Shown one piece after another: positions 20,816 through 52,658 of a stretch of 64,000 nucleotides of DNA. The DNA is taken from positions 81,994 to 145,993 of the forward strand of contig JBFXKG010000005.1 of the NCBI GenBank assembly GCA_050174015.1, given 5' to 3'. Origin of the DNA: Candidatus Krumholzibacteriia bacterium. GTDB taxonomy: Bacteria; Krumholzibacteriota; Krumholzibacteriia; LZORAL124-64-63. A model generated the notes under the pieces. It saw only the letters and a list, made by a program, of their open reading frames with translations, searched no databases and had not been told where the DNA came from. A program made the position numbers and the translations under genes. Position 1 is the stretch's first letter; every line of letters starts with the position of its first letter.

Positions 20816-21044
20816 GGTTTCCGCAACCCGACAGGGAAACGGTATCCCAGCCCGACCAGCACCTAGATTAATGGTTGCTTTCCGCGGATCAACCCTTTTC
20901 TGCAATCCGCCCCGGCATTTTTTGGGTTGCCGGAGCCCCCCGATTTTCGGCCTGGTTCCCGGTTTTCGAGTGATTCCCTGGCCGTTGACGGTTATCCTGG
21001 TCGGCATTCCCCAGCGGATTCGTCCTCCTTCGATCGGAAGGTCC

Positions 21045-22832
21045 ATGGCGCGCCACGTTCACCTCGGGATCCTGTTCGGCCTGCTGGCGTCCTGCGCCAG
21101 GGCCGACGCCACGCCGGCCCTGCAGACGCCCTTCGAGGATTCGGGAGGCAGGGAAACGCCGACCTACGCCGAGACGGTGAGCTGGTGCAGGGATCTGGCG
21201 GAGTCCTCGCCCCTGGTCTCCTACCGGGAGTTCGGTCTCAGTCCCCAGGGGAGGGCCTTGCCCCTGGTGGTCGCCGACCGGGACGGCTTCGCCGATCCGG
21301 ACGCCTGCCGGCGGGGAGGGGATCAGGTCATCCTCCTGGTCCAGGCCTGCATCCACGCCGGGGAAAGCTGCGGCAAGGACGCCGGCATGCTCCTGCTGAA
21401 GGACCTCGCCGCCGCCGACGGTCCGGCGCGCGCCCTGCTGGACAACGTCACGCTCCTGTTCATCCCCATCTTCAACGTCGACGGCCACGAGCGGTTCGGC
21501 CCCTACAACCGCGTCAACCAGAACGGGCCCCGGGAGATGGGTTGGCGGACGACCGCGCAGAACCTCAATCTCAACCGGGATTTCCTCAAGGCCGACGCCC
21601 CGGAGATGCAGGCCTGGCTGGGACTGTGGAACGCGTGGTCGCCGGACTTCTTCATCGACGTCCACAGCACCGACGGGGCCGACTACCAGTACGCGATCAC
21701 CTACAGCCTGGAGACTCACGGGAACCTCGATGCGGGCCTGACCACCCTGGTCCAAACCTACGAAGACCGCATGAACCGGGACATGGCGGCCGACGGGTTT
21801 CCCATGATCCGCTACGTCTCCTTCCGGAACTGGCACGACCCGCGCAGCGGCCTGCAGGCGTGGGCCGCCGGTCCCCGGTTCAGCCAGGGTTACGCCGCGG
21901 TGCGCAACCGTCCGGGACTGCTGATCGAGACCCACATGCTCAAGGACTACGCCAATCGTGTGGAGACCTCGGGACTGCTGGTGAGGCACACGATGGCCTG
22001 GCTGAACGAACACGGCGCGGAACTCAGGGCCGCGGTCGAGGCCGCCGACCGGGCCGCCGCCTCGCCCGGTTTCAGGGACCGGCCGTTCCCCCTGACCTTC
22101 CAGCGGACCGATTCCTGCCGGACCATCGATTTCCTGGGAGTGGCCTACGAAACGGTGACCGGCGAGGTGACGGGGGGCGACTACAACCGCTTCGGCGCCG
22201 AGCCCGAGATCTGGAAGGTGGACTACTACGACGTCGTCGAACCGGACGAGACGGTGATCCTGCCGGCTGCGTACCTGGTGCCCCCCGAATGGACGGCGGT
22301 CCTGGAGAGACTCCGGTGGCACGGCGCGCAGTTCCGGCGTCTGGCCGCGCCGGTGGACCTGGAAGTCCGGACCTACCGCTTCGGAAGCGCGACCTGGGGG
22401 CGGCGTCCCTACGAGGGGCGCAACACGGTGGAGTTCGAGATCGCCGCGGGAACCGAAACCCTGACCTTTCCGGCGGGATCGGCCGTGGTCTCCCTGGCCC
22501 AGCCGGCGGCGCGGGCGATCGCCCACCTGCTCGAGCCGGAAGGACCCGATTCCCTGGCGCGCTGGGGATTCTTCACCGCGGTGTTCGACCGTGTGGAGTA
22601 CGTCGAGTCCTACGTCATCGAGGCCATGATCCCGCAGATGCTGGCCGAGCGCCCGGAACTCGCCGCCGAGCTGGAGGCGGCGAAGGCCGCCGATCCGGTG
22701 TGGGCGAAGGAGCCCTGGAACCTCAGGATGTGGTTCTACGAGCGCACGCCCTATTACGACGGACGCGCAGGCCTGTACCCGGTCGGCCTGCTCGACGACC
22801 CGACGGTCCTGGAATCGTTACCCCTCGACTGA
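21045..22832 (+). CDS. M14-family zinc carboxypeptidase (secreted)
   Basis: Signal peptide; Zn-binding region QACIHAGESCG and downstream FIDVHSTDG typical of M14; the upstream 58 aa of the table ORF are not used. Confidence 0.7.
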   Translation: MARHVHLGILFGLLASCARADATPALQTPFEDSGGRETPTYAETVSWCRDLAESSPLVSYREFGLSPQGRALPLVVADRDGFADPDACRRGGDQVILLVQACIHAGESCGKDAGMLLLKDLAAADGPARALLDNVTLLFIPIFNVDGHERFGPYNRVNQNGPREMGWRTTAQNLNLNRDFLKADAPEMQAWLGLWNAWSPDFFIDVHSTDGADYQYAITYSLETHGNLDAGLTTLVQTYEDRMNRDMAADGFPMIRYVSFRNWHDPRSGLQAWAAGPRFSQGYAAVRNRPGLLIETHMLKDYANRVETSGLLVRHTMAWLNEHGAELRAAVEAADRAAASPGFRDRPFPLTFQRTDSCRTIDFLGVAYETVTGEVTGGDYNRFGAEPEIWKVDYYDVVEPDETVILPAAYLVPPEWTAVLERLRWHGAQFRRLAAPVDLEVRTYRFGSATWGRRPYEGRNTVEFEIAAGTETLTFPAGSAVVSLAQPAARAIAHLLEPEGPDSLARWGFFTAVFDRVEYVESYVIEAMIPQMLAERPELAAELEAAKAADPVWAKEPWNLRMWFYERTPYYDGRAGLYPVGLLDDPTVLESLPLD

Positions 22833-43164: not shown

Positions 43165-44631
43165 TCAATCCTGGTTCACGTCGGAGTAGGCGTTCTTCAG
43201 CTCATACCGCGAAACCCCGCGTTTCTTGTCCGGATCGCCCTCGTAGCCCAGGGCCTTCCAGTCGATGCGCCCCTGGCCTTCCTTGGGATGGCAGTCGACG
43301 CACTTCAGGGCGTACTGGGCGGGAGCGACCATGTGGTTGATCTTCCAGTAGGCCGAGGTCTCGGCGAAGCCGTACTCGCCGCCGTACTCCAGGCCCACCG
43401 CCTCCATGCCCTGCTTCATGGCGCTGTCCCAGTCCCACCCGTTCTTCCAGTAGCCGGTCTTGCCGAAGAGCTTGGGCACGGCCAGGATCCGGGCCTGCTT
43501 GTCGTAGGGCTGCTTGCCGCGCATGACCTTGAACGGGTAGATCTTGGCCTTGGGGTCGAGGCGGTTGCCCTGGAGCCAGTTCAGGTGGGTCACGCCGTCG
43601 GGGTTCATCGCATCGCCCAGGGTGTACTGGCCGCTGACCCCGTTGTACCACGCGTAGGTGGGGACGACGTTCTTCTCCCATTTGAAGGAGCCCTTCTTGA
43701 TGTCGTAGACGGGCATCCCGAATTCGTCCACGGTCGCTTCGATGTTCTGGCCGGCGGTGGACCAGTCCCACCAGGTCTTGGTGGGATTGGCGCGGGCGAA
43801 CTGGGGGATGTGGCAGGTCTGGCAGGCCACGGTCTTGTTGTGCCAGTTCAGGATCCGCTTGGCGTGCAGATCCTCGTCGTGGCAGCTGGTGCACTCGAGG
43901 TGGTTGGTGCCCCCGGGCGAATCGAACATGGCGTTGCCCGCGATGTCGTGGTCGGTGGTGGTGTGGCACTCCTGGCAGGTGAAGTCCTGGCCTTCGGGGC
44001 TCATGTGGACGTCGATGGCCAGCGGGGGTTCGGCCAGGGCCTTTTCCAGGTCGCCGTGCTTGACGTTGTTGCCGCCGCCGCCGTAGAAGTGGCAGGCGCC
44101 GCAGTTCTCGCGGCTGGGCATTCCGGCGCTGCGGGCGATGCTGGCCAGGTCCAGGGGCTCCCAGATCTTGCCCTCCCACTCGGTGGGCTCGTAGACGGGA
44201 TGGCCCGCCCCGGTGGGGAACTTCCGGTAGGAGCCGGTCTGGTCATGGCAGACCAGGCAGTCGATGTTCCCGGGGTTGTCGAAGTCGAAGGTTGCGTCCT
44301 TCCAGCCGTAGCCCGCATGGCAGCTGGTGCACCGCGGCCAGTTGGAATCCAGGGCGATGCAGAAATTGTTCAGGGCGTTCTTCTTGCCGAGGGGGACCTG
44401 GCCCTTGCCCACGACGTCCTGGAGGGGCATCCAGGTCCAGTGGGACGTCTTCATGAAGTCGTGGGCGGCGTCGTCATGGCATTCCAGGCAGACCGCGGTC
44501 ACGGCGGGGCCGTTTTCGAAGGGACCTTCGATGTCCTGGTGATCGGGGACCACGTTCAGGGCGAGGGCCTGACCGCAGGCGGCGGCCAGGACCAAGGCCA
44601 GGATGGTCTGGAATTGGGAAACTCGGCGCAT
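43165..44631 (-). CDS. Octaheme c-type cytochrome (octaheme tetrathionate-reductase-like family)
   Basis: Signal peptide MRRVSQFQTILALVLAAACGQALA; eight CxxCH motifs (CLECH, CTSCH, CLVCH, CGACH, CQECH, CTSCH, CQTCH, CVDCH); ggagg RBS; 488 aa. Confidence 0.8.
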   Translation of the reverse strand: MRRVSQFQTILALVLAAACGQALALNVVPDHQDIEGPFENGPAVTAVCLECHDDAAHDFMKTSHWTWMPLQDVVGKGQVPLGKKNALNNFCIALDSNWPRCTSCHAGYGWKDATFDFDNPGNIDCLVCHDQTGSYRKFPTGAGHPVYEPTEWEGKIWEPLDLASIARSAGMPSRENCGACHFYGGGGNNVKHGDLEKALAEPPLAIDVHMSPEGQDFTCQECHTTTDHDIAGNAMFDSPGGTNHLECTSCHDEDLHAKRILNWHNKTVACQTCHIPQFARANPTKTWWDWSTAGQNIEATVDEFGMPVYDIKKGSFKWEKNVVPTYAWYNGVSGQYTLGDAMNPDGVTHLNWLQGNRLDPKAKIYPFKVMRGKQPYDKQARILAVPKLFGKTGYWKNGWDWDSAMKQGMEAVGLEYGGEYGFAETSAYWKINHMVAPAQYALKCVDCHPKEGQGRIDWKALGYEGDPDKKRGVSRYELKNAYSDVNQD

Positions 44632-44860
44632 GGACGTTGCCTCCGTGTGGAGCCCCCGATCCGTCACGTTCCCCCTGTCAGGGACCGGGTCGGAGCGCTG
44701 TGAAATCATTAACCCTGCCTCAAAATTCACCCAGCCCGGGGGTATAATCAAGAAATTTCATGACAAATTGATGACATAAAGGAGATTGGAACCGTCCGAT
44801 ATTCGTTCTGGGAAGTAAATCAAGAGAGCATTCTGCCGACAAAGAGGGCAGGAGGTCGCC

Positions 44861-46080: not shown

Positions 46081-46109
46081 TTGACATTTCCTTGTTTTTT
46101 CGATAAACT
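46081..46109 (+). promoter_or_regulatory. Sigma-70-like promoter TTGACA-N17-TAAACT in an AT-rich island upstream of paralogue pair 1
   Basis: Hexamers read directly; surrounding 300 nt are markedly AT-rich compared with the window. Confidence 0.5.
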
Positions 46110-46159: not shown

Positions 46160-46174
46160 GGAAAAATTCCTGAT
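46160..46174 (+). promoter_or_regulatory. Conserved motif GGAAAAATTCCTGAT (dyad GGAA-AAA-TTCC), copy 1 of 3
   Basis: Same 14-15-mer at 47738 and 49334, each 110-145 nt upstream of an A-type paralogue start. Confidence 0.5.
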
Positions 46175-46313: not shown

Positions 46314-46976
46314 ATGATCAGTTTGGTCAAGAAAATGTCCCTGGCGTTGGTCCTGGCAGCGGTGCTGTCCGTGCCGGCCTTCGCCCAGGTCGCTTCCATC
46401 GATTATATCGGATTCGGGTACGAGACCGGAGGCATCTTCCCCAGCGATCCGGGGGATGAACTGGTGGTCGCCGCCATCGCCGACTGGGTCGACGCTGAGT
46501 TCGGCGTCGATCTCGGCGCGGATGAGCTGACCTTCCACGTCTACGGCCTGATCAGCACCGGCCAGTTCAGCTCCGGCGGCAACACCGTGGTCGGCTACAC
46601 GGGCGGCGTCCTGGAGATCTACCAGGATTCCGGCAAGAACGCCGACTGGGGCGTCAATCCCCCCAACGCCACCTCTCCCGGCACCTTCTCCGACGGAACC
46701 CTCTTCTTCCAGGGCTCGTTCAACGACTTCACGCTCTTCTTCACGCCCGACGGCAACGGGGCCTTCGAGGGCTCCCTCGACGCCCTGGGCGGAACGATGA
46801 TCGACGGCAGCTGCGCCGGGTGCGTGTACACCTGGGGCGGGGCGTTCACCCGTGATGCCGGGGCGCTGATTCCAGGGGGTTACGACCTCCAGATCGACGG
46901 CGTGTTCCAGATCGACGCCACCGTTTCCAGCGAGACCAGCAACTGGGGATCCGTCAAGGCCCTGTTCAACAACTAG
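46314..46976 (+). CDS. Secreted paralogue A1 (type-A, CxxC-containing; C-terminal SWGSVKALFNN)
   Basis: Signal peptide; conserved SIDYIGFGYETGG, ELTFHVYGLIS, LEIYQD, DGSCAGCVYTWGGAF; about 65% identity to A2 and A3. Confidence 0.75.
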   Translation: MISLVKKMSLALVLAAVLSVPAFAQVASIDYIGFGYETGGIFPSDPGDELVVAAIADWVDAEFGVDLGADELTFHVYGLISTGQFSSGGNTVVGYTGGVLEIYQDSGKNADWGVNPPNATSPGTFSDGTLFFQGSFNDFTLFFTPDGNGAFEGSLDALGGTMIDGSCAGCVYTWGGAFTRDAGALIPGGYDLQIDGVFQIDATVSSETSNWGSVKALFNN

Positions 46977-47026
46977 GAAGATCAGCCCGGGCCGTGACAG
47001 GCCTGGGATTCCGGGAGGAATACAGC

Positions 47027-47647
47027 ATGAAGAAGAGGATCATGGTTCTGCTGGTCGCCGCCGCCTCGGTCCTGGTTCCCATGACCGCCCAGGCCCAGCA
47101 GCTTTTCGATTTCAACGGCCAGACCGACCTGCCGGACATGGTGGGATCCGACCTGACGATGTACAGCCGGATGTTCGACGCCTCTCCGGCGGTTCCGCCC
47201 ATCCCCCTTGACTTCGCCAACTACGAGTTCACCCTGGTGGTGACCGGGCTCGAACTGGTGACCGACGGGAATCCCCAGGCTTACGCCGGGGGCACCGTGA
47301 TCATCTACCAGGATGACGCCACGCCGGCGGATTACGCCAACACCGGGACCTTCACCGACGGCACCGCCATCCTGGTGGGCAGCCTGGTCAGCCTGAACCG
47401 GACCATGTTCACCTCGTCCCTGGGCTCCGTCCTGGGCACCGTGGACTGGACCGGGGGGACCCGCCTGGACGACATCGCCCCCGAGGATCAGGACGGCTGG
47501 GCCTTCCTGTCGGGTACGATCAACCGGGCCGATTCCGTCGAACCCGGCTTCGATGAGGCCTGGGACGGGAAGGTCGAACCGCAGGAGCCCATCGTGGACG
47601 ATCAGAACAGCAGCTGGGGATCCGTGAAGGCTCTTTTCAGTCGCTAG
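47027..47647 (+). CDS. Secreted paralogue B1 (type-B, Cys-free; C-terminal SWGSVKALFSR)
   Basis: Signal peptide MKKRIMVLLVAAASVLVPMTAQA; conserved QQLFDFNGQ, PIPLDFANYEFTLVV, GGTVIIYQDD, VDWTGGTRLDDIAPEDQDGWAFLSG. Confidence 0.75.
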   Translation: MKKRIMVLLVAAASVLVPMTAQAQQLFDFNGQTDLPDMVGSDLTMYSRMFDASPAVPPIPLDFANYEFTLVVTGLELVTDGNPQAYAGGTVIIYQDDATPADYANTGTFTDGTAILVGSLVSLNRTMFTSSLGSVLGTVDWTGGTRLDDIAPEDQDGWAFLSGTINRADSVEPGFDEAWDGKVEPQEPIVDDQNSSWGSVKALFSR

Positions 47648-47671
47648 CCGCCATGCGAGGCTTGAGGCGCA

Positions 47672-47703
47672 GGGGCCCCGACCAGGTTCGGGGCCCTTTT
47701 TTG
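47672..47703 (+). terminator. Rho-independent terminator after B1 (ggggccccg-accaggtt-cggggccc + T7)
   Basis: GC stem followed by a T-run. Confidence 0.7.
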
Positions 47704-47737
47704 ATAGGTGGCGTCATTTTCCCGCCCTGGTCATTTA

Positions 47738-47752
47738 GGAAAAATTCCTAAT
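47738..47752 (+). promoter_or_regulatory. Conserved motif GGAAAAATTCCTAAT, copy 2; followed by candidate promoter TTGAAA-N17-TAGGAT (47753-47781)
   Basis: Read directly. Confidence 0.5.
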
Positions 47753-47889
47753 ATTGTTGAAATCGTTCGGGAAATGGCGTAGGATTTTTCACAGACGATT
47801 CAAAATTGATGACATAGGGTGCCGGAGATGATGGGAATCACAACGGACGATCCCGGCCGTGATGCGGCCCGGATCCTGGGGGTACGACG

Positions 47890-48558
47890 ATGAAGAGAAC
47901 CTATGTTCCGAAGGTGCTGGTGGGCGCCTTGCTTCCGGCCCTGTTCGCGGTCCCAGCCCTGGGACAGGTCTATTCGATCGATTACTTGGGCTATGCCTGG
48001 GAAACCGGCGGGATCCTGCCCAGCGATGCGGGCGACGAACTGGTCATCGTCAGCGTCGCGGACAACGTCGATCCCGCCTTCGGGGTCGATCTGGGCACCG
48101 ATGAGCTGACCTTCCACGTCTACGGCCTGATCAGCGGCGGCGAGACGGATTTCCTCGGCAACACCATGATCAACTATTCCGGCGGCTACCTGGAGATCTA
48201 CCAGGATCCTTCGCGGAACGCCGATTGGGGCGTCGATCCCCCCAATGCGACCGCGCCCGGCTCCTTCACCGAGGGCAGCCTGTTCTTCCGTGGCGCCTTC
48301 ACGGCGTTCACCCTGTTCTTCGATCCCAGCGGCAGTTACGGTTCCTTCGAGGGGACTCTCGACGGCCTCGCGGGATCGATCATCGACGATGTCTGCTCCG
48401 ACTGCGTGTACACGTGGGGCGGGGCGTTCACCCTGGATGCCGGCGCCCAGATTCCGCAGGGCTATGACCTCCAGATCGACGGCGTCTTCGAGATCGACGC
48501 GGCCGTGTCCTCGGAATCCGCGAGCTGGGGTTCGGTGAAGGCGCTCTTCAACAATTGA
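47890..48558 (+). CDS. Secreted paralogue A2 (C-terminal SWGSVKALFNN)
   Basis: Signal peptide; SIDYLGYAWETGG ... DDVCSDCVYTWGGAF. Confidence 0.75.
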   Translation: MKRTYVPKVLVGALLPALFAVPALGQVYSIDYLGYAWETGGILPSDAGDELVIVSVADNVDPAFGVDLGTDELTFHVYGLISGGETDFLGNTMINYSGGYLEIYQDPSRNADWGVDPPNATAPGSFTEGSLFFRGAFTAFTLFFDPSGSYGSFEGTLDGLAGSIIDDVCSDCVYTWGGAFTLDAGAQIPQGYDLQIDGVFEIDAAVSSESASWGSVKALFNN

Positions 48559-48605
48559 GGTTTGCATCGCTCCGCGGGGGGCTTGTGACATCTGGAGGTT
48601 GCAAC

Positions 48606-49226
48606 ATGAGATTCACGGTAAAGATCCTGCTGGCCGTCCTGGCGCTGGCTTCGCTTCCGGTGGCCGTGCAGGCCCAGCAGCTGTTCGACTTCAACGGTCA
48701 GGCGGTCCTGCCCGCCGGAACGGGCGGGACCCTGACCATGCACAGCATCGTTTACGACGCGGCTCCCGCCGTGACGCCGATTCCCCTGGATTTCGCGAAC
48801 TTCGAGTTCACGATCGTCGTGGAGAACCTGATCCTGGATGTGGACGGGAATCCGCAGACGTACTCCGGAGGCACGGTCACCCTGTACCAGGACGCTGCGA
48901 CGGCCGCGGACTTCGGGGACCTCTCGACCTTCACGGACGGGACGGCGATCCTGATCGGGACCATCACCACCCTGAACCGGACGCTGTTCACGGCGACCCT
49001 GGGGTCGGTGCTGGGTTCGGTGGACTGGACCGGCGGGACCCGCCTGGACGACATCGCACCCTGGGATCAGGGTGGCTGGGCGTTCCTGAGCGGCCTGACC
49101 AATCGGGTGGATTCGGTGGTGCCGGGATTCGACGAGGCCTGGGACGGGAAGATCGAACCGTCCGAGCCCATCGTCGCCGGCGAGGCGAGTTCCTGGGGTT
49201 CGGTCAAGGCCCTGTTCAATCGTTGA
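48606..49226 (+). CDS. Secreted paralogue B2 (C-terminal SWGSVKALFNR)
   Basis: Signal peptide MRFTVKILLAVLALASLPVAVQA; QQLFDFNGQ ... VDWTGGTRLDDIAPWDQGGWAFLSG. Confidence 0.75.
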   Translation: MRFTVKILLAVLALASLPVAVQAQQLFDFNGQAVLPAGTGGTLTMHSIVYDAAPAVTPIPLDFANFEFTIVVENLILDVDGNPQTYSGGTVTLYQDAATAADFGDLSTFTDGTAILIGTITTLNRTLFTATLGSVLGSVDWTGGTRLDDIAPWDQGGWAFLSGLTNRVDSVVPGFDEAWDGKIEPSEPIVAGEASSWGSVKALFNR

Positions 49227-49243
49227 CCGCCTCCCGTTCATCT

Positions 49244-49276
49244 GCGAGCCCCGGCCTGCGGGGCTCGCAGTTTTTT
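49244..49276 (+). terminator. Rho-independent terminator after B2 (gcgagccccg-gcct-gcggggctcgc + agtttttt)
   Basis: Perfect 10-bp GC stem plus T6. Confidence 0.75.
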
Positions 49277-49333
49277 GACCACATGTGCTCGAATTTGGTA
49301 TATCGTTGCCATCATTGAAGTTGGTGAAAGATA

Positions 49334-49348
49334 AGAAAAATTCCTAAT
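49334..49348 (+). promoter_or_regulatory. Conserved motif AGAAAAATTCCTAAT, copy 3; followed by candidate promoter TTGCAT-N17-TAGTCT (49351-49379)
   Basis: Read directly. Confidence 0.5.
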
Positions 49349-49459
49349 TCCATTGCATTTTCTGGCCGGCCGTGCTAGTCTCACCCTGAAATCGCCCACC
49401 AATTAAAACTCAATTCGATATATGCGACCCGCAACTCGAGTTCAGCTGGAGGGAAGATC

Positions 49460-50122
49460 ATGAAGAAAACCTTCACCCCTTGCGCCCTGGTGAGCCTGCT
49501 GCTCGCTTTCGTTCTGGCGGTGCCGGCGCTGGGGCAGGTGTATTCCGTCGATTATCTCGGTTATGGCTGGGAGCAGGGCGGCCCCCTGAAGGCCGCCGGT
49601 GATGAACTGATCATCACGGCCACGTCGACCTACGTGCATCCTGCCTTCGGCGTCGATCTCGGAACCGAGGAATTGACCTTCTACGTCTCGAGCTTGATCA
49701 GCAACGGCCCGACGGACTACTTCGGCAACACCCAGATCAACTACACCGGCGGCATTCTCGAGATCTATCAGGATCCCCTGATGAACGCGGACTGGGGAGT
49801 CAATCCTCCCAACGCCACCTCACCGGGCAGCTTCCAGGAAGGCAGCCTGTTCTTCGCGGGGGCGTTCACCGCCTTCACCATGTTCTTCGATCCTTCCGGG
49901 TCCTACGGTTCGTTCGAGGGGACCCTCGACGGGGTGGCCGGCTCCATCATCGACGGGGTCTGCTCCGATTGCGTCTACACCTGGGGTGGCGCCTTCCAGA
50001 CCGGTTCCGGGGCCCAGATTCCCGAGGGGTACTGGATCCAGGTCGATGGCGTGTTCGAGATCGATGCCGCCGTATCTTCGGAGGCCGCCAGCTGGGGCTC
50101 CGTCAAAGCACTTTTCAACTAG
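49460..50122 (+). CDS. Secreted paralogue A3 (C-terminal SWGSVKALFN)
   Basis: Signal peptide; SVDYLGYGWEQGG ... DGVCSDCVYTWGGAF. Confidence 0.75.
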   Translation: MKKTFTPCALVSLLLAFVLAVPALGQVYSVDYLGYGWEQGGPLKAAGDELIITATSTYVHPAFGVDLGTEELTFYVSSLISNGPTDYFGNTQINYTGGILEIYQDPLMNADWGVNPPNATSPGSFQEGSLFFAGAFTAFTMFFDPSGSYGSFEGTLDGVAGSIIDGVCSDCVYTWGGAFQTGSGAQIPEGYWIQVDGVFEIDAAVSSEAASWGSVKALFN

Positions 50123-50167
50123 TCCGGTAGGATTCGCCGCGACGCCCTGCGGCATGGGAGGACGGAA

Positions 50168-50776
50168 ATGAAGAACGCAATCAAGGGAATGCTGATCGTC
50201 CTGGCGGTGGTTGCCTTGCCCCTGTCCGCCTCGGCGCAACAGTTGTTCGACTTCAACGGCCAGGCCATGGTGCCTGCGGTGGTCGGCGGCACGCTGAGCA
50301 TGTACAGCGTGATGTACGATCCCGCCCCGCAGACCACGCCCCTCCCGCTGGACTTCGACAACTTCGAATACACGCTGGTGGTTTCGGGAGCGACCCTCGA
50401 CGTCAACGGCAATCCCCAGTCCTACGTCGGCGGCGTGCTGACGATCTACGAGGACGCGGGTACGGCGGCCGACTTCGCCAACACCGCGACGTTCACCGAC
50501 GGCACGGCCATCCTGGTGGGGAGCTTCACCTCCCTCAACCGGATCGTCTTCCTGAGCACGGGTTCGGTCCAGGGCTACCTGGACTGGAACGGAGGCGCCT
50601 GGCTGAACGACATCGCGCCCGAGGATCAGACCGGCTGGGCCTTCCTTGCCGGCACCAACAGCCGCAGCCCCGAACCCGGATATTCGGAGACCTGGGACGG
50701 CAAGGTGGAGCCGCCGACGGTCATCGTCGACGACCACGTCTCCTCCTTCGGCTCGGTCAAGGCGCTGTTCAAGTAG
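50168..50776 (+). CDS. Secreted paralogue B3 (C-terminal SFGSVKALFK)
   Basis: Signal peptide; QQLFDFNGQ ... LDWNGGAWLNDIAPEDQTGWAFLAG. Confidence 0.75.
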   Translation: MKNAIKGMLIVLAVVALPLSASAQQLFDFNGQAMVPAVVGGTLSMYSVMYDPAPQTTPLPLDFDNFEYTLVVSGATLDVNGNPQSYVGGVLTIYEDAGTAADFANTATFTDGTAILVGSFTSLNRIVFLSTGSVQGYLDWNGGAWLNDIAPEDQTGWAFLAGTNSRSPEPGYSETWDGKVEPPTVIVDDHVSSFGSVKALFK

Positions 50777-50800
50777 CCGTTTCCGCCGGCCGGACAGAAT

Positions 50801-50834
50801 GACGGACCGCCCTTCGGGGCGGTCCGTTCATTCA
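50801..50834. terminator. Hairpin gacggaccgccc-ttcg-gggcggtccgt between convergent genes (B3 / lipoprotein)
   Basis: 12-bp stem, UUCG loop; weak T tract; could serve both strands. Confidence 0.5.
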
Positions 50835-50855
50835 TGCCCAAGGGTGCGGCGCCGG

Positions 50856-52658
50856 CTACTCGGCCGGCAGGACCGTCACGGTGATGGCGTCCTGGACGAC
50901 GTCATCCCCGGTCCCCGCCCTCGCCAGGATGGTGATCTCCGTGGCCTCGGTCACCGCGGGAGTCCGCCAGGTGGCCGACCAGATCTCCAGCCCCTCCACC
51001 GCCTGCGGCTCCGATCCCGCCATGAGATCGACGAACGAAAGCGGGGCCCCTCCAAGGATGCCGGAGGCCGTCCCGGCGATGGTCACGTCGGTGTCGGCCT
51101 GCACCTGGGCTCCGTCGAGGGGTTCGGCGATGGCCACGAGCAGCTGGGAAACGGTGACGTCGATGATGGCCGTGGCGGAATCGGCGCCGGCCCACGCGCG
51201 GGCTCGCAGGACCCGCGGGGTGTCGGCGGCGAAGAGGGGGACGTTCCAATCGAAGGACCAGGCTTCCAGGCCGTCCGCGGCCACGAATCCCGCGCCGTCG
51301 CCCACGTCCACCTTGACCGAATCGATGGAGGTCTCCCCGGCGTTGCCGCTGCCCTGCACCATCAGAGGAACGCCGCCGAGCACCACGTCACCGTTGCGGG
51401 GGGCCAGGAAGTTGACCGAGACCGGCTGCTGGACGCGGATGACCGAGGCCGTCAGGATCCTGGAATCCGCCCAGTCGTTGCGGTACTGGGCGTAGACCGT
51501 GATCTCGCCCTCATCCGCTCCGAGGTCGATCGCGGCCGAGTCGGCATAGGCCTGCCACCCGGTGCCGCGGAAGTCGGGACTGAGGGAAAAGCGCATCAAG
51601 GTGGCCACCGCGCCGGAGATCCCGATCACCGTGCTCGCGCCGGTGACGCCGGAGGGCACGTCCAGCTCGAAGGTCGCCTCCTGGAGCAGATCGGGGCTGA
51701 CGTCCCAGTCGGTGACGGCGGTGAACCCGAAGTCACCCTGGAATTCCCCGAAGATCGTCTGGGGAGAGGCGGAATCCGCCAGCTGGAAGCCGCCGACCGT
51801 CTCGGCCGGATCCCGCCACTCGGCGGAGGCGAGGGCCTCGGAGCTGGCGGCGAAACGCATGGCCGTGACCCCTTCGGTGGCGACGGTCAGATCGACCAGC
51901 CGGGTGGCGACGCTCGCGGGTTTTCCGGCTACGGAGAAATCAGGTTCGAAATCCACGGTCAGGGTCTTCGACCCGACGGCGGAGGCGGAACCGGCGGTAT
52001 AACCCTTGGCGAAGATCCTGACCGTGTCGCCGTTCTGGGAGGCGGGACCGAAATCCCAGGGGATGGTCTGGGCGACTCCAGGCGTCACGACGGGATAGCT
52101 CACCGCCCCGGTGAAGTCCTCGACGGCTGCCACCACGAAACTGTCCTGCATGTTGACGGTGATCTCGACCTCCTGGTGGCGGGAGGCGACGGTCTTGCGA
52201 GCCGAATCGTTCCCCACCACGATGCGAGGCAGGGACAGGGCCGAGGCCGGGACTTGGTAGGAGAGGAGGGTGAAGTCGCCGCCCTCGTTGAAGGCCTGCA
52301 CCTGGAAGAAGTGCATCCGGGTGGGGGACGGGTTGGGGTACAGGTACTGGTTGGACGGGGCGGTGGTCGCATCGACCGTCGCCACGTATTCGTACCCCGT
52401 TCCCGAACTGAAGCTGTGGTTGACGTCGTAGGTGGTGATGCCCAGTCCCTGGGGCTGGTCCCACATCAGCAGGATGAACGTGTCGCTGGCCGTGGCGCGC
52501 AGGTTCAGCGGACCGCCGCCGGCGAGCCCCGCGGGGTCGAAGGGGTTGTCGAACTCCGGAGCGGCGGGTTTGCTCTCGCAGCCGGCGAGGACGGCGCCCA
52601 GGGCGATGGCTCCGCAGGCGAGGAAGAAGATCAGGCGGATGATCCGGCGGTCGGACAT
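50856..52658 (-). CDS. Large lipoprotein with fibronectin-III-like and Ig-like beta-sandwich domains
   Basis: Lipobox LAGCES; FN3-like segment (LNLRATASDTFILLMWDQP...YEYVATV...FFQVQAFNEGG); 600 aa. Confidence 0.55.
   Translation of the reverse strand: MSDRRIIRLIFFLACGAIALGAVLAGCESKPAAPEFDNPFDPAGLAGGGPLNLRATASDTFILLMWDQPQGLGITTYDVNHSFSSGTGYEYVATVDATTAPSNQYLYPNPSPTRMHFFQVQAFNEGGDFTLLSYQVPASALSLPRIVVGNDSARKTVASRHQEVEITVNMQDSFVVAAVEDFTGAVSYPVVTPGVAQTIPWDFGPASQNGDTVRIFAKGYTAGSASAVGSKTLTVDFEPDFSVAGKPASVATRLVDLTVATEGVTAMRFAASSEALASAEWRDPAETVGGFQLADSASPQTIFGEFQGDFGFTAVTDWDVSPDLLQEATFELDVPSGVTGASTVIGISGAVATLMRFSLSPDFRGTGWQAYADSAAIDLGADEGEITVYAQYRNDWADSRILTASVIRVQQPVSVNFLAPRNGDVVLGGVPLMVQGSGNAGETSIDSVKVDVGDGAGFVAADGLEAWSFDWNVPLFAADTPRVLRARAWAGADSATAIIDVTVSQLLVAIAEPLDGAQVQADTDVTIAGTASGILGGAPLSFVDLMAGSEPQAVEGLEIWSATWRTPAVTEATEITILARAGTGDDVVQDAITVTVLPAE

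Follow-up and report, generated by a model that had tools for sequence, protein, structure and literature searches.

The main result of this analysis is that a C-terminal peptide of about 16 residues, found on all six proteins of a tandem gene array, is probably an undescribed protein-sorting signal, since it caps dozens of unrelated secreted proteins, small ones that have it in common across several non-Bacteroidota phyla of the FCB group, and sits where surface-sorting signals sit. The reading that we favour, and regard in its entirety as reasonably likely, is that the array encodes Sec-exported, acidic and soluble barrels of two types (A and B), and that each of them bears on a flexible linker a portable sorting or recognition tag that would be read in trans.

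The array lies in a window of 64 kb (the whole stretch of DNA analysed) from the genome of an uncultured member of the Krumholzibacteria, and consists of three A/B gene pairs, six open reading frames on the + strand whose start positions had all been placed correctly by an earlier, sequence-only reading. The encoded proteins are 202-222 aa long, and a Shine-Dalgarno-like GGAGG or GGGGG lies 7-8 nt 5' of each gene. In agreement with that reading, all six proteins carry Sec signal peptides, recognised by eye from a K/R n-region, a hydrophobic core, AxA or ALG and Gln at +1; the A types contain a CxxC motif and the B types have no cysteine. The features of the array are the following:

46081-46109, + strand: sigma-70-like TTGACA-17-TAAACT, upstream of A1
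46160..46174, + strand: conserved 15-nt box GGAAAAATTCCTGAT, upstream of A1
46314..46976, + strand: A1 gene, 220 aa; signal peptide about 46314-46385, then a predicted acidic 8-stranded barrel with CxxC (fold taken from the A2 model)
46932..46973, + strand: A1 C-terminal tag ETSNWGSVKALFNN
47027..47647, + strand: B1 gene, 206 aa; signal peptide 47027-47095, then the Cys-free barrel paralogue
47603..47644, + strand: B1 C-terminal tag QNSSWGSVKALFSR
47671..47698, + strand: intrinsic-terminator-like hairpin and T-run after B1; 11-bp stem with 8 GC pairs, then TTTTGATAGG
47738..47752, + strand: conserved 15-nt box GGAAAAATTCCTAAT, upstream of A2
47890..48558, + strand: A2 gene, 222 aa; signal peptide 47890-47964
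48514..48555, + strand: A2 C-terminal tag ESASWGSVKALFNN, also in the AlphaFold2 model
48606..49226, + strand: B2 gene, 206 aa; signal peptide 48606-48674
49182..49223, + strand: B2 C-terminal tag EASSWGSVKALFNR, also in the AlphaFold2 model
49242..49270, + strand: intrinsic-terminator-like hairpin and T-run after B2; 12-bp stem with 10 GC pairs, then TTTTTTGACC
49334..49348, + strand: conserved 15-nt box AGAAAAATTCCTAAT, upstream of A3
49460..50122, + strand: A3 gene, 220 aa; signal peptide 49460-49534
50081..50119, + strand: A3 C-terminal tag EAASWGSVKALFN
50168..50776, + strand: B3 gene, 202 aa; signal peptide 50168-50236
50735..50773, + strand: B3 C-terminal tag HVSSFGSVKALFK, F replaces W
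50798..50832, no strand assigned: strong GC hairpin in the gap that separates B3 from the convergent gene 50856-52658 (- strand); position by eye from the computed fold

With terminators after the B genes and a promoter-region box before each A gene, the pairs look like three separate transcription units, as had been proposed. The A-to-B gaps are 45-50 bp long (50 bp between A1 and B1) and hold no terminator, and the B-to-A gaps of 233-242 bp each contain a GC hairpin and T-run terminator. The hairpin downstream of B3, which is a probable bidirectional terminator, lies in an 80-nt stretch (50777-50856) with a minimum free energy of -46.9 kcal/mol (z -3.5), and no clear T-run on the + strand was seen behind it. 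The 15-nt box RGAAAAATTCCTRAT, a putative promoter or operator element, occurs three times in the window (0.09 expected), once 5' of each A gene and nowhere else.

Genes A and B appear to be co-transcribed as A-B units and their products probably act together, a partnership suggested by adjacency and not supported as an obligate one. The A-then-B order persists in distant contigs with unrelated neighbours, which bears out the view that the two have been kept as adjacent partners. Their ancient paralogy is likewise upheld by profile-profile alignment (hhalign probability 99.6%, E 2.5e-24), with identities of 59-65% among A types and 30-33% between A and B. AlphaFold2 models of A2 and B2 are both 8-stranded beta-barrels (pLDDT 90-92), which span mature residues 1-178 in A2 and 1-161 in B2 and to which the C-terminal motif is tethered by a linker, disordered at 181-186 in A2 and below pLDDT 50 at 170-172 in B2, ahead of a low-confidence terminal helix (188-195 and 174-181, respectively). 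Strand 5 of A, read against the modelled strand boundaries, is hydrophobic on both faces. The mature proteins hold 20-29 Asp and Glu residues and only 1-3 Lys, one of which is that of the tag. Neither the domains nor the C-terminal motif match a described family in Pfam, NCBIfam or PDB sequences, as the sequence-only reading had anticipated; B types give weak matches to the PEP-CTERM protein PepA, and one JGI record labels a B homologue 'opacity protein-like surface antigen'. Our guess is that the barrels might have a structural or surface-coat role like PepA.

The terminal nonapeptide that the six proteins had been said to share is present in all of them as (W/F)GSVKALF followed by 1-2 residues, but it is not strictly invariant, since W is replaced by F in B3. 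Six-frame translation of the window gives exactly six matches to the pattern [WF]G.[IVL]K..[FYLM], all of them 1-2 residues from the stop codon of an array gene. Since the six coding stretches differ at synonymous sites, conservation acts on the peptide and does not reflect gene conversion or a DNA element. The motif is kept in about 90% of 240 A/B homologues, and a strict or variant tag is found in 120 of the best 150 superfamily representatives; in some relatives the aromatic is the very last residue, and natural variants replace K with R, which fits recognition of charge better than lysine chemistry. Within the barrel superfamily the tag is ancestral as well as dominant, and judged by A and B alone it might have had a structural role.

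Scans of genomes and metagenomes with back-translated tag DNA place it far beyond this superfamily. The full tag has the consensus V/T-P/A-x-E-x-x-[ST]-W-G-x-[VI]-K-[AS]-L-[FY]-(R/N/K), and E-x-x-[ST]-W-G-x-[VI]-K-[AS]-L-[FY]-R stands at the extreme C-terminus of at least 166 proteins in at least 76 sequence clusters, genomes and metagenomes combined. In genomes, at least 47 ORFs of at least 150 aa have the tag no more than six residues from the stop; most go undetected by the A/B HMMs, and clustering of the set after removal of the tag gives at least 30 clusters. The metagenomes yield at least 137 ORFs that end in the tag, at least 112 of which are 150 aa or longer. The notion that the tag is special to the six genes or their family cannot be maintained, for the A/B superfamily makes up only 8 of 119 metagenomic carriers among the matches listed. 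Positions left free by the search pattern are conserved as well, with [ST] at -1 in 111 of the 119 carriers listed, and also P/A at -6, T/V at -7 and E at -4. Hydrophobic, signal-peptide-like N-termini are found by a crude signal-peptide regex in 37 of the 47 genome-scan carriers listed, and a hydrophobic-run regex is positive for the N-terminus in 89 of the 119 metagenome carriers listed; the median carrier has about 210 aa among the matches listed.

The passengers are structurally unrelated, and include beta-helix (PF13229), SnoaL (PF07366), CHRD (PF07452), DVUA0089 (NF038127) and choice-of-anchor V (NF041895; 82 and 92 bits, cut-off 42) families. Among the matches listed, all true carriers come from uncultured organisms, and those with an organism label are all MAGs of FCB-group candidate phyla. 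Named carriers belong to MAGs labelled Krumholzibacteria, Eisenbacteria, Latescibacterota, Gemmatimonadota and Fermentibacteria/Hyd24-12, while the label Fibrobacteraceae on some carrier MAGs may be wrong. Where Bacteroidota or other phyla give a match, it is internal or lies in a short ORF. Other lineages, too, have small tagged paralogues in tandem arrays (loci L059 and L060).

On homologous passenger domains the tag alternates with T9SS CTD, PEP-CTERM and MYXO-CTERM signals. A CTD-like tail is found at the end of nine long barrel homologues (TIGR04183, the T9SS type-A CTD, scores above cut-off in 6 of 7 tested), one barrel-homologue fragment has a PEP-CTERM-like end, and a beta-helix relative of tagged carriers (L098) has, by eye, a classical CTD-like tail. 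Since known signals replace the tag on homologous passengers, the tag is positionally interchangeable with them, and on this logic of position and domain swapping it may be equivalent to a sorting signal. The proposal of a sorting or recognition tag served by machinery outside the window is thus strengthened by its presence on at least 76 unrelated clusters and by its alternation with known signals. No receptor or processing enzyme is encoded near the array, where the window holds only housekeeping genes, and no untagged neighbour family recurs in 140 carrier loci (746 kb), of which only three have PorV/PorQ-family genes adjoining the carrier. The tag is not known to have a cognate enzyme.

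Other readings of the tag must be weighed against these data. It could be a self-sufficient membrane anchor, a short amphipathic helix lying at the outer leaflet of the inner membrane or at the outer membrane with no dedicated receptor, much as MinD and PBP5 use C-terminal amphipathic anchors. AlphaFold2 draws the last eight residues of both types as helical, behind a flexible linker, their W, V, K, L, F/Y and R composition is typical of interfacial peptides, and no receptor gene lies nearby; moreover, three genome-scan carriers have N-termini that we read as lipobox-like, and if lipoproteins they are, the tag cannot be a mere release signal. Generic amphipathic anchors, however, conserve character and not sequence, and here W, G, K, L, the aromatic, [ST] at -1 and E at -4 are fixed by position across unrelated passengers and phyla. 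The peptide makes about two helical turns, with a modest hydrophobic moment (0.24-0.49) that is similar for helix and strand and a pLDDT of about 50, and we consider such an anchor unlikely.

We are equally doubtful of a docking or assembly module, by which tagged proteins would bind a common scaffold in the manner of dockerin and cohesin, or the tail of A or B would enter a partner barrel to form surface heteromers or polymers. A-B adjacency conserved across the phylum, the recurrent arrays of tagged paralogues, the doubly hydrophobic strand 5 of A and a barrel sequence conservation that fits many protein contacts are consistent with it, yet no scaffold candidate was found and, because most carriers are singletons of unrelated folds, a tail-into-barrel mechanism cannot be general. 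This module overlaps with the reading that we favour, because both require a trans-acting binder.

We find it improbable that the tag is instead the substrate of a periplasmic enzyme, be it a C-terminal degron or a PDZ ligand of Prc/CtpA/DegS-type proteases, perhaps after an M14 carboxypeptidase has trimmed the terminal R/K, or a lysine for covalent attachment (to peptidoglycan as in Braun's lipoprotein, or by transglutaminase cross-linking). The lysine is nearly invariant, a C-terminal pair of aromatic and basic residues is common, and genes for M14 carboxypeptidases are found no more than 25 kb away from the array in the window and, at L005, no more than 10 kb away from the pair; a transglutaminase-core gene is close to the pair at L007. 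These neighbours are not conserved, however, and arginine, found in natural variants, cannot stand in as a cross-linking amine; there is no obvious reason why dozens of conserved multi-copy proteins should carry a fixed degron, and the swap with bona fide sorting signals would be left unexplained. Least credible, and rejected here, is the earlier suggestion of a BAM beta-signal, with A and B as small integral outer-membrane barrels of the OmpX/OmpA/PagL type: the aromatic that ends the motif and the surface-antigen label of one B homologue recommend it, but soluble barrels (DUF3224, AOC-like, PodA, avidins, YceI) score equal or higher, the highly acidic passengers with few basic residues would be hard to fit in an 8-stranded membrane barrel, the tag is parted by a disordered linker from the last barrel strand and usually followed by 1-2 residues (polar ones in the window), it occurs identically on beta-helix, SnoaL, CHRD and other soluble, non-barrel folds, and barrel homologues serve as N-terminal passengers of T9SS cargo.

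Under the sorting-signal reading, each A-B unit would be started by its own promoter with the 15-nt box and stopped by the hairpin after B. Sec export and signal peptidase I cleavage would leave an N-terminal Gln, and the barrels would fold in the periplasm, A possibly with a CxxC disulfide, as the AlphaFold2 model suggests. A conserved factor, its gene located elsewhere in the genome, would then read the exposed tag in trans and deliver the folded passenger to the cell envelope or surface, or retain it there, which would be the task that T9SS CTDs, PEP-CTERM and MYXO-CTERM signals perform on homologous passengers of other proteins and lineages. A T9SS-related route, for instance through a PorV/PorQ-family outer-membrane protein, is our leading but tentative guess.

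Compared with known soluble 8-stranded up-and-down barrels of the AOC-like, DUF3224, avidin and YceI types, A and B share at most 14% identity, exceed them by some 60 residues, have conserved loops such as ADWG-x-PPNAT-x-P-x-TF-x-DG, and differ in being secreted, paired and tagged. No Pfam or NCBIfam model matches the tag, nor did the literature searched, and it contains no TM helix, Arg cluster or CTD fold. The tripartite C-terminal signals (LPXTG, PEP-CTERM, MYXO-CTERM, GlyGly-CTERM, PGF-CTERM and others; Haft, bioRxiv 10.1101/2023.06.07.544157) are likewise short C-terminal signatures on signal-peptide proteins otherwise without similarity, and their carriers, like those of the tag, include passenger families of the 'choice-of-anchor' type. 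Only 0-2 residues follow the signature of the tag, however, and since these form no transmembrane helix or Arg cluster an intramembrane sortase-type mechanism is not applicable.

The T9SS type-A CTD (TIGR04183), the Por secretion tail found in Bacteroidota and further FCB phyla, forms an Ig-like beta-sandwich of 40-100 aa that has motifs B, D and E even when 'short' (PMC11969387). The tag, by contrast, measures about 16 aa, by prediction either lacks structure or forms a helix of two turns, has no B or D motif and is carried mostly by small proteins; when the six proteins of the window and the tag peptides were compared with NCBIfam, TIGR04183 was not among the matches. The two are nonetheless alike in occupying the extreme C-terminus of Sec-exported folded passengers, they occur in the same lineages, with classical CTD cargo even in the same loci, and they swap on homologous barrel and beta-helix passengers. 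Their ends (...[KR]-M-x-L-[VL]-[KR] in the CTD and K-A-L-[FY]-R in the tag) both run from a basic residue through 3-4 hydrophobic positions to a second basic residue.

The approximately 16-residue C-terminal tag shared by the six secreted A and B proteins, with its (W/F)GSVKALF core, appears on sequence grounds to be a previously undescribed type of C-terminal sorting signal, encountered so far only in uncultured phyla of the FCB group. In the window, its bearers are encoded by six ORFs that lie at the positions assigned by the sequence-only reading, all of them on the plus strand.

Features of the A/B array and of its syntenic flanks, in window coordinates
43165-44751, minus strand, flanking gene syntenic with GCA_043826375.1
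44861-45265, plus strand, flanking gene syntenic with GCA_043826375.1
45269-45715, minus strand, flanking gene syntenic with GCA_043826375.1
46160-46174, 15-nt box RGAAAAATTCCTRAT upstream of A1
46314-46976, plus strand, A1 gene
47027-47647, plus strand, B1 gene
47671-47698, GC-rich hairpin and T-run in the B1-A2 spacer
47738-47752, 15-nt box RGAAAAATTCCTRAT upstream of A2
47890-48558, plus strand, A2 gene
48606-49226, plus strand, B2 gene
49242-49270, GC-rich hairpin and T-run in the B2-A3 spacer
49334-49348, 15-nt box RGAAAAATTCCTRAT upstream of A3
49460-50122, plus strand, A3 gene
50168-50776, plus strand, B3 gene
50856-52658, minus strand, flanking gene syntenic with GCA_043826375.1
52681-53430, minus strand, flanking gene syntenic with GCA_043826375.1

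A Shine-Dalgarno-like GGAGG or GGGGG precedes every one of the six genes. As judged by eye, all six products begin with a Sec signal peptide of typical form, and Gln is the first residue (+1) after the predicted cut. The predicted signal-peptidase sites end in AFA, AQA, ALG, VQA or ASA, each followed by Q, and the first mature codons fall at 46386, 47096, 47965, 48675, 49535 and 50237. A crude regular expression places Gln at +1 also in 11 of the 37 other tag carriers listed that have a signal-peptide-like N-terminus, and this recalls the 'Q-rule' (pyroglutamate N-termini) reported for the Bacteroidetes.

The spacers between A and B genes measure 45-50 bp and, on inspection, hold no terminator. 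Those between B and A genes measure 233-242 bp and present first a GC-rich hairpin with a T-run and then an AT-richer stretch. Downstream of B3, before the convergent gene, lies a further strong hairpin, and the 80-nt stretch that contains it folds at -46.9 kcal/mol (z -3.5). The box RGAAAAATTCCTRAT, which encloses the palindrome GGAAnnnTTCC, occurs three times in the 64-kb window against 0.09 copies expected, exclusively upstream of A genes and 126-154 nt from their starts. It is present in the close relative at locus L001 and absent from distant A/B loci, and is likely to be a lineage-specific promoter or operator co-regulating the three units. The proposal that the pairs form three separate transcription units fits the terminators, boxes and AT-richer spacers, and three separately promoted, probably co-regulated A-B operons would be a fair reading of these elements.

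The close relative GCA_043826375.1 has an identical three-pair array with the same flanking genes, which encode a multihaem cytochrome c (Cytochrome_cB), a 600-aa lipoprotein with a Big_7 domain, a PEGA-domain protein and two small proteins without Pfam match, one of them with CxxC...CxxC pairs. Distant contigs keep a single A-then-B pair amid unrelated neighbours, which argues that the pair is the conserved unit and does not travel with a machine. The surroundings in the window are of a housekeeping nature (CheA, ThiI, MscS, a beta-CASP RNase, nuo genes and the multihaem cytochrome), with the Big_7 lipoprotein and the PEGA protein located downstream of the array. The window also encodes an M14 zinc carboxypeptidase (20871-22832), and another M14 gene lies near the A/B pair of a distant relative (locus L005, 16913-19468). 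The neighbourhood of the M14 gene is not conserved, and it is pure speculation that such an enzyme might trim the terminal R or K of the tag and expose its aromatic residue.

Identity among A proteins reaches 59-65%, and that between A and B proteins 30-33%. The sequence-only reading had suspected an ancient duplication, and this is borne out by a profile-profile comparison of 64 A with 63 B homologues, whose match over the full length (probability 99.6%, E 2.5e-24) indicates that A and B are true paralogues. The assignment of a CxxC to the A types and of Cys-free sequences to the B types holds in the array; more generally, all A-type homologues have at least two Cys, forming the CxxC, and B-type homologues have 0 or 1. 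The claim that neither the domains nor the C-terminal motif belong to a described family is likewise upheld. A Pfam scan of the six window proteins and the bare tag peptides returned nothing above cut-off, the A+B profile found no match among PDB sequences, and NCBIfam yielded only sub-threshold similarity of B types to the PEP-CTERM flocculation protein PepA (floc_PepA, NF033554; 12.9-20.6 bits over about 85 residues, cut-off 80), with no match for the A types. At most, this may point to a distant relationship of the barrel core.

Prediction of the structures of A and B, suggested as a check by the same reading, produced confident eight-stranded barrels with the tag outside. The AlphaFold2 models of A2 (pLDDT 90.1) and B2 (pLDDT 92.4), built with family alignments, consist of eight long antiparallel strands in the up-and-down arrangement of AOC-like and lipocalin-like soluble barrels. 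About 20 residues (pLDDT around 50) follow the barrel and are modelled as a linker (pLDDT below 50) and a short, 8-residue helix formed by the motif (pLDDT about 50). Mature A and B proteins contain 20-29 Asp plus Glu against 2-7 basic residues (1-3 Lys, 0-5 Arg), one of the Lys being that of the tag. This composition, together with the portability of the tag and its interchange with other signals, suggests a soluble acidic barrel and not a membrane barrel; it speaks against a lipid-facing hydrophobic belt on the surface, though it is no proof.

More than 200 close homologues exist per type, all of them annotated as hypothetical and lacking a Pfam domain, and those with a named source belong mostly to Candidatus Krumholzibacteria/-ota. 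In about 90% of these close homologues, W-G-x-[VIL]-K-x-L-[FY] followed by 0-2 residues is kept. Loci L063, L119 and others, labelled 'uncultured Fibrobacteraceae' in TPA assemblies, encode A-type proteins scoring 1e-29 to 1e-101 against the Krumholzibacteria A profile, and that label may be unreliable. To judge from their strong conservation, their multiple copies and pairing, and their weak similarity to PepA, the barrels may be an abundant structural or surface component.

The pattern [WF]G.[IVL]K..[FYLM] has only six matches when the 64-kb window is translated in all six frames, and each of them lies 1-2 residues before the stop of an A or B gene. The codons used differ among the six copies (GGA/GGT/GGC, GCC/GCT/GCG/GCA, CTG/CTT/CTC, AAG/AAA), and these synonymous differences argue that conservation of the tag is selected at the peptide level. 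They also speak against gene conversion or a DNA or RNA element as its source, as does the Rfam search of the array region, in which no family matched.

A search of genomes for ORFs ending in the tag had been proposed, and it proved productive. Scanning one genome per species with the back-translated W-G-x-V-K-A-L-F gave at least 118 stretches and at least 125 peptide matches; in at least 47 of these, no more than 6 residues separate the match from the stop, and the ORF is 150 aa or longer. Among the 47 carriers listed, [ST] precedes the W in about 43, and the MAG labels of these [ST]-W carriers, where given, are Eisenbacteria, Krumholzibacteria, Latescibacterota, Gemmatimonadota, Fermentibacteria/Hyd24-12, 'Fibrobacteraceae' and unclassified bacteria. 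None of the carriers sampled comes from a cultured organism. A contig binned as Reyranella (L076) also bears a typical tag and is probably mis-binned. The other matches listed (Bacteroidota, Proteobacteria, Firmicutes, CPR and others) are internal or in short ORFs and were taken as the chance background; several of the internal ones are a single recurring stretch, GTL.VGD...WG[RK]VKALF, in long proteins that look like translation factor IF-2. Only a handful of the 47 carriers are recognised by the A or B HMMs at family-level scores, and once stripped of the tag they fall into at least 30 unrelated clusters. For metagenome contigs a more general pattern was used, W-G-x-[VIM]-K-x-L-[FY]-R plus TRR, which covers the stop codons and TGG. 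It retrieved at least 120 stretches with at least 137 ORFs ending in the tag, at least 112 of them of 150 aa or more. Eight of the 119 metagenome carriers among the matches listed belong to the A/B superfamily, and the median length of those listed is about 210 aa. Pooled, the two scans provide at least 166 carriers in at least 76 clusters defined with the tag removed.

Signal-peptide-like N-termini were detected, among the carriers listed, in 37 of 47 with a crude signal-peptide expression and in 89 of 119 with one for hydrophobic runs. Three genome-scan carriers (L081, L096 and L039) have, by eye, lipoprotein-type signal peptides with lipoboxes GLAC, TLAC and LVGC. The tag may therefore occur also on lipid-anchored proteins, a point that bears on whether it means release or surface display and docking. 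Several positions fixed by neither search pattern are conserved, namely [ST] at -1 (111 of the 119 listed), E at -4, P/A at -6 and T/V at -7, and they extend the tag to about 16 residues, [TV]-[PA]-x-E-x-x-[ST]-W-G-x-[VI]-K-[AS]-L-[YF]-R. The motif is followed by 0-2 residues, rarely by up to 12, and the terminal residue is a single R, K or N. A search with a 43-column profile of the tag region gave 25 candidates and returned two short fragments.

The largest carrier cluster (e.g. L178) has at least 33 members, mostly from metagenome contigs; these are Cys-rich proteins of about 230 aa without Pfam or NCBIfam match, and at five of its loci an adjoining untagged secreted protein ends, by eye, in a dockerin-like D-x-D-G. 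Across carriers generally, a Cys is frequent 9-11 residues ahead of the tag W. Tandem arrays of small tagged paralogues unrelated to A/B are also seen in other lineages: a Fermentibacteria MAG (L059, 5581-7793) has four such genes, whose products measure about 205 aa and end in TTTWGAVKALF, and a 4.7-Mb contig of an unclassified MAG (L060, 2591-5804) has three, with products of about 265 aa that end in [ST]WG[GD]VKALFR.

The portions that precede the tag include a right-handed beta-helix (PF13229), tandem SnoaL (PF07366), CHRD (PF07452) and the DVUA0089 family (NF038127). 'Choice-of-anchor V' (NF041895) is found in two carriers, which score 82 and 92 bits (cut-off 42) and also match the MXAN_6652 MYXO-CTERM family. 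The 'choice-of-anchor' families are so named because they stand ahead of alternative C-terminal sorting signals, and the barrel behaves in the same manner, since a single domain is found ahead of different C-terminal signals. With the A+B profile as query, HMMER searched exhaustively yielded 442 representative clusters, and the best 150 of these 442 were classified by C-terminus: 83 have the strict tag, 37 a variant of the form [ST]-W-[GS]-x-[VI]-[KR]-x-L-[YF]-R that includes K-to-R changes, 9 a CTD-like tail, 1 (a fragment) a PEP-CTERM-like end with VPEP, a hydrophobic stretch and RRRR, and 20 are fragments or have unclassified ends. The nine with a CTD-like tail are proteins of 480-761 aa with an N-terminal barrel, in which the match stops just before the tag. 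Seven of these long barrel homologues were tested with TIGR04183, the model of the T9SS type-A C-terminal sorting domain (CTD), and six exceed its cut-off of 23 bits, with model scores of 29-46 bits. Similarly, the beta-helix protein L098 (1336 aa) has, by eye, a CTD-like tail of the classical kind and is homologous to beta-helix carriers of the short tag. Over evolutionary time, homologous passengers have thus borne in one and the same place either the tag or one of three established envelope-sorting signals, and this is the strongest available argument for the tag itself being a sorting or recognition signal. Its portability over at least 76 clusters and its interchange with known signals support and widen the earlier suggestion of a recognition tag for machinery encoded elsewhere.

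The proposed tabulation of co-occurring genes, made here for the neighbourhoods of carriers, brought no such machinery to light: all-against-all clustering of neighbour ORFs at first 47 and then 140 carrier loci listed (746 kb) revealed no recurrent untagged family, and the recurrent neighbours were antisense ORFs and housekeeping genes only. Cargo genes of the T9SS and PEP-CTERM systems are scattered through the genome, and recurrent neighbours are not typical there either. Type IX secretion is the known route with most to suggest it. Sixteen classical CTD ORFs occur in 14 of the 140 carrier loci listed, including loci from MAGs labelled Krumholzibacteriia, and the carriers listed come only from lineages whose loci also hold classical CTD cargo. 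Moreover, a PorV/PorQ-family gene (NF033709, 137 bits, cut-off 90) lies within about 2 kb of carriers in three of these 140 loci.

PorV/PorQ-family loci, in locus coordinates
L060, 95-934 and 739-2658
L044, 1910-3052
L039, 4136-5311

In L060 the gene directly beside that of the PorV/PorQ family encodes a large protein whose tail is CTD-like in the classical manner, and the three tandem tagged genes come next. A CTD motif and a PorV homologue were sought in the 64-kb window and neither was found. The CTD cargo of the same lineages, the three PorV/PorQ loci and the likeness of the tag's end to that of the CTD are hints only, and we consider a T9SS route for the tag less likely than not.

Under the reading that we favour, the tag as a sorting signal of its own, the proteins would be exported by Sec and the passenger would then fold, leaving a flexible tail to present the tag to a conserved trans-acting factor, which would route the passenger to the outer membrane or cell surface, or retain it there. 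That individual positions are conserved on unrelated passengers and across phyla favours a protein receptor or enzyme over generic membrane partitioning. We would tentatively put forward that the tag defines an unrecognised envelope-sorting pathway, or a CTD-less form of type IX secretion, by which several uncultured FCB-group phyla might export or surface-anchor dozens of small folded families. The phyla concerned would be those of MAGs labelled Krumholzibacteria, Eisenbacteria, Latescibacterota, Gemmatimonadota, Fermentibacteria and relatives, and the 'mystery array' would be reframed, its barrels being the most conserved, multi-copy tag cargo in the Krumholzibacteria. C-terminal sorting signals are the main handle for surface-proteome prediction, and the tag picks out many secreted proteins that otherwise defy annotation, in phyla for which soil, sediment and digester metagenomes are the only source. 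If it is a sorting signal, it offers a simple sequence rule for the surface and secreted proteome of these lineages and a phylogenetic-profiling handle toward the cognate receptor or translocon; it may also show how little information outer-membrane sorting needs, and provide a useful minimal export tag.

Comparison with known signals sets the tag apart. No Pfam or NCBIfam model matches it; within the library searched, literature searches by motif strings and peptides gave irrelevant matches only, and those combining the candidate phyla with T9SS terms gave no papers. The CTD is an Ig-like beta-sandwich of 40-100 aa with motifs B, D and E, which even the 'short' Prevotella CTDs retain (PMC11969387). 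The tag is rejected as a CTD, having about 16 residues and no fold, and NCBIfam scans of the six window proteins and two tag peptides gave no TIGR04183 match, even at E up to 1 and 10. Signal-peptide-like N-termini on most carriers, with no mutual similarity apart from the tag, are as expected of the tripartite class (PEP-CTERM, LPXTG, MYXO-CTERM) defined by Haft (bioRxiv 10.1101/2023.06.07.544157), but the tag is followed by neither a transmembrane segment nor an Arg cluster. Covalent attachment through the Lys is down-weighted by the natural K-to-R variants, which are evidence against Lys chemistry. A BAM beta-signal, a candidate of the sequence-only reading, is not supported, as the tag lies outside the barrel after a disordered linker (AF2), 1-2 residues follow its F in the window, and non-barrel folds (beta-helix, SnoaL, CHRD, choice-of-anchor V) carry it. 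Encapsulin and microcompartment cargo-loading peptides likewise combine a linker with a short C-terminal peptide and are ruled out by the Sec signal peptides of the carriers.

It was through LPXTG, PEP-CTERM and the T9SS CTD that their respective dedicated envelope machines came to be discovered. Of the CTD, only the motif-E-like basic-hydrophobic-basic end is discernible in the tag, whose K-A-L-[FY]-R resembles the CTD terminal [KR]-M-x-L-[VL]-[KR]. If our reading is true, no bacterial C-terminal sorting signal shorter than the tag would be known, and none before it would lack both a transmembrane segment and a folded domain.
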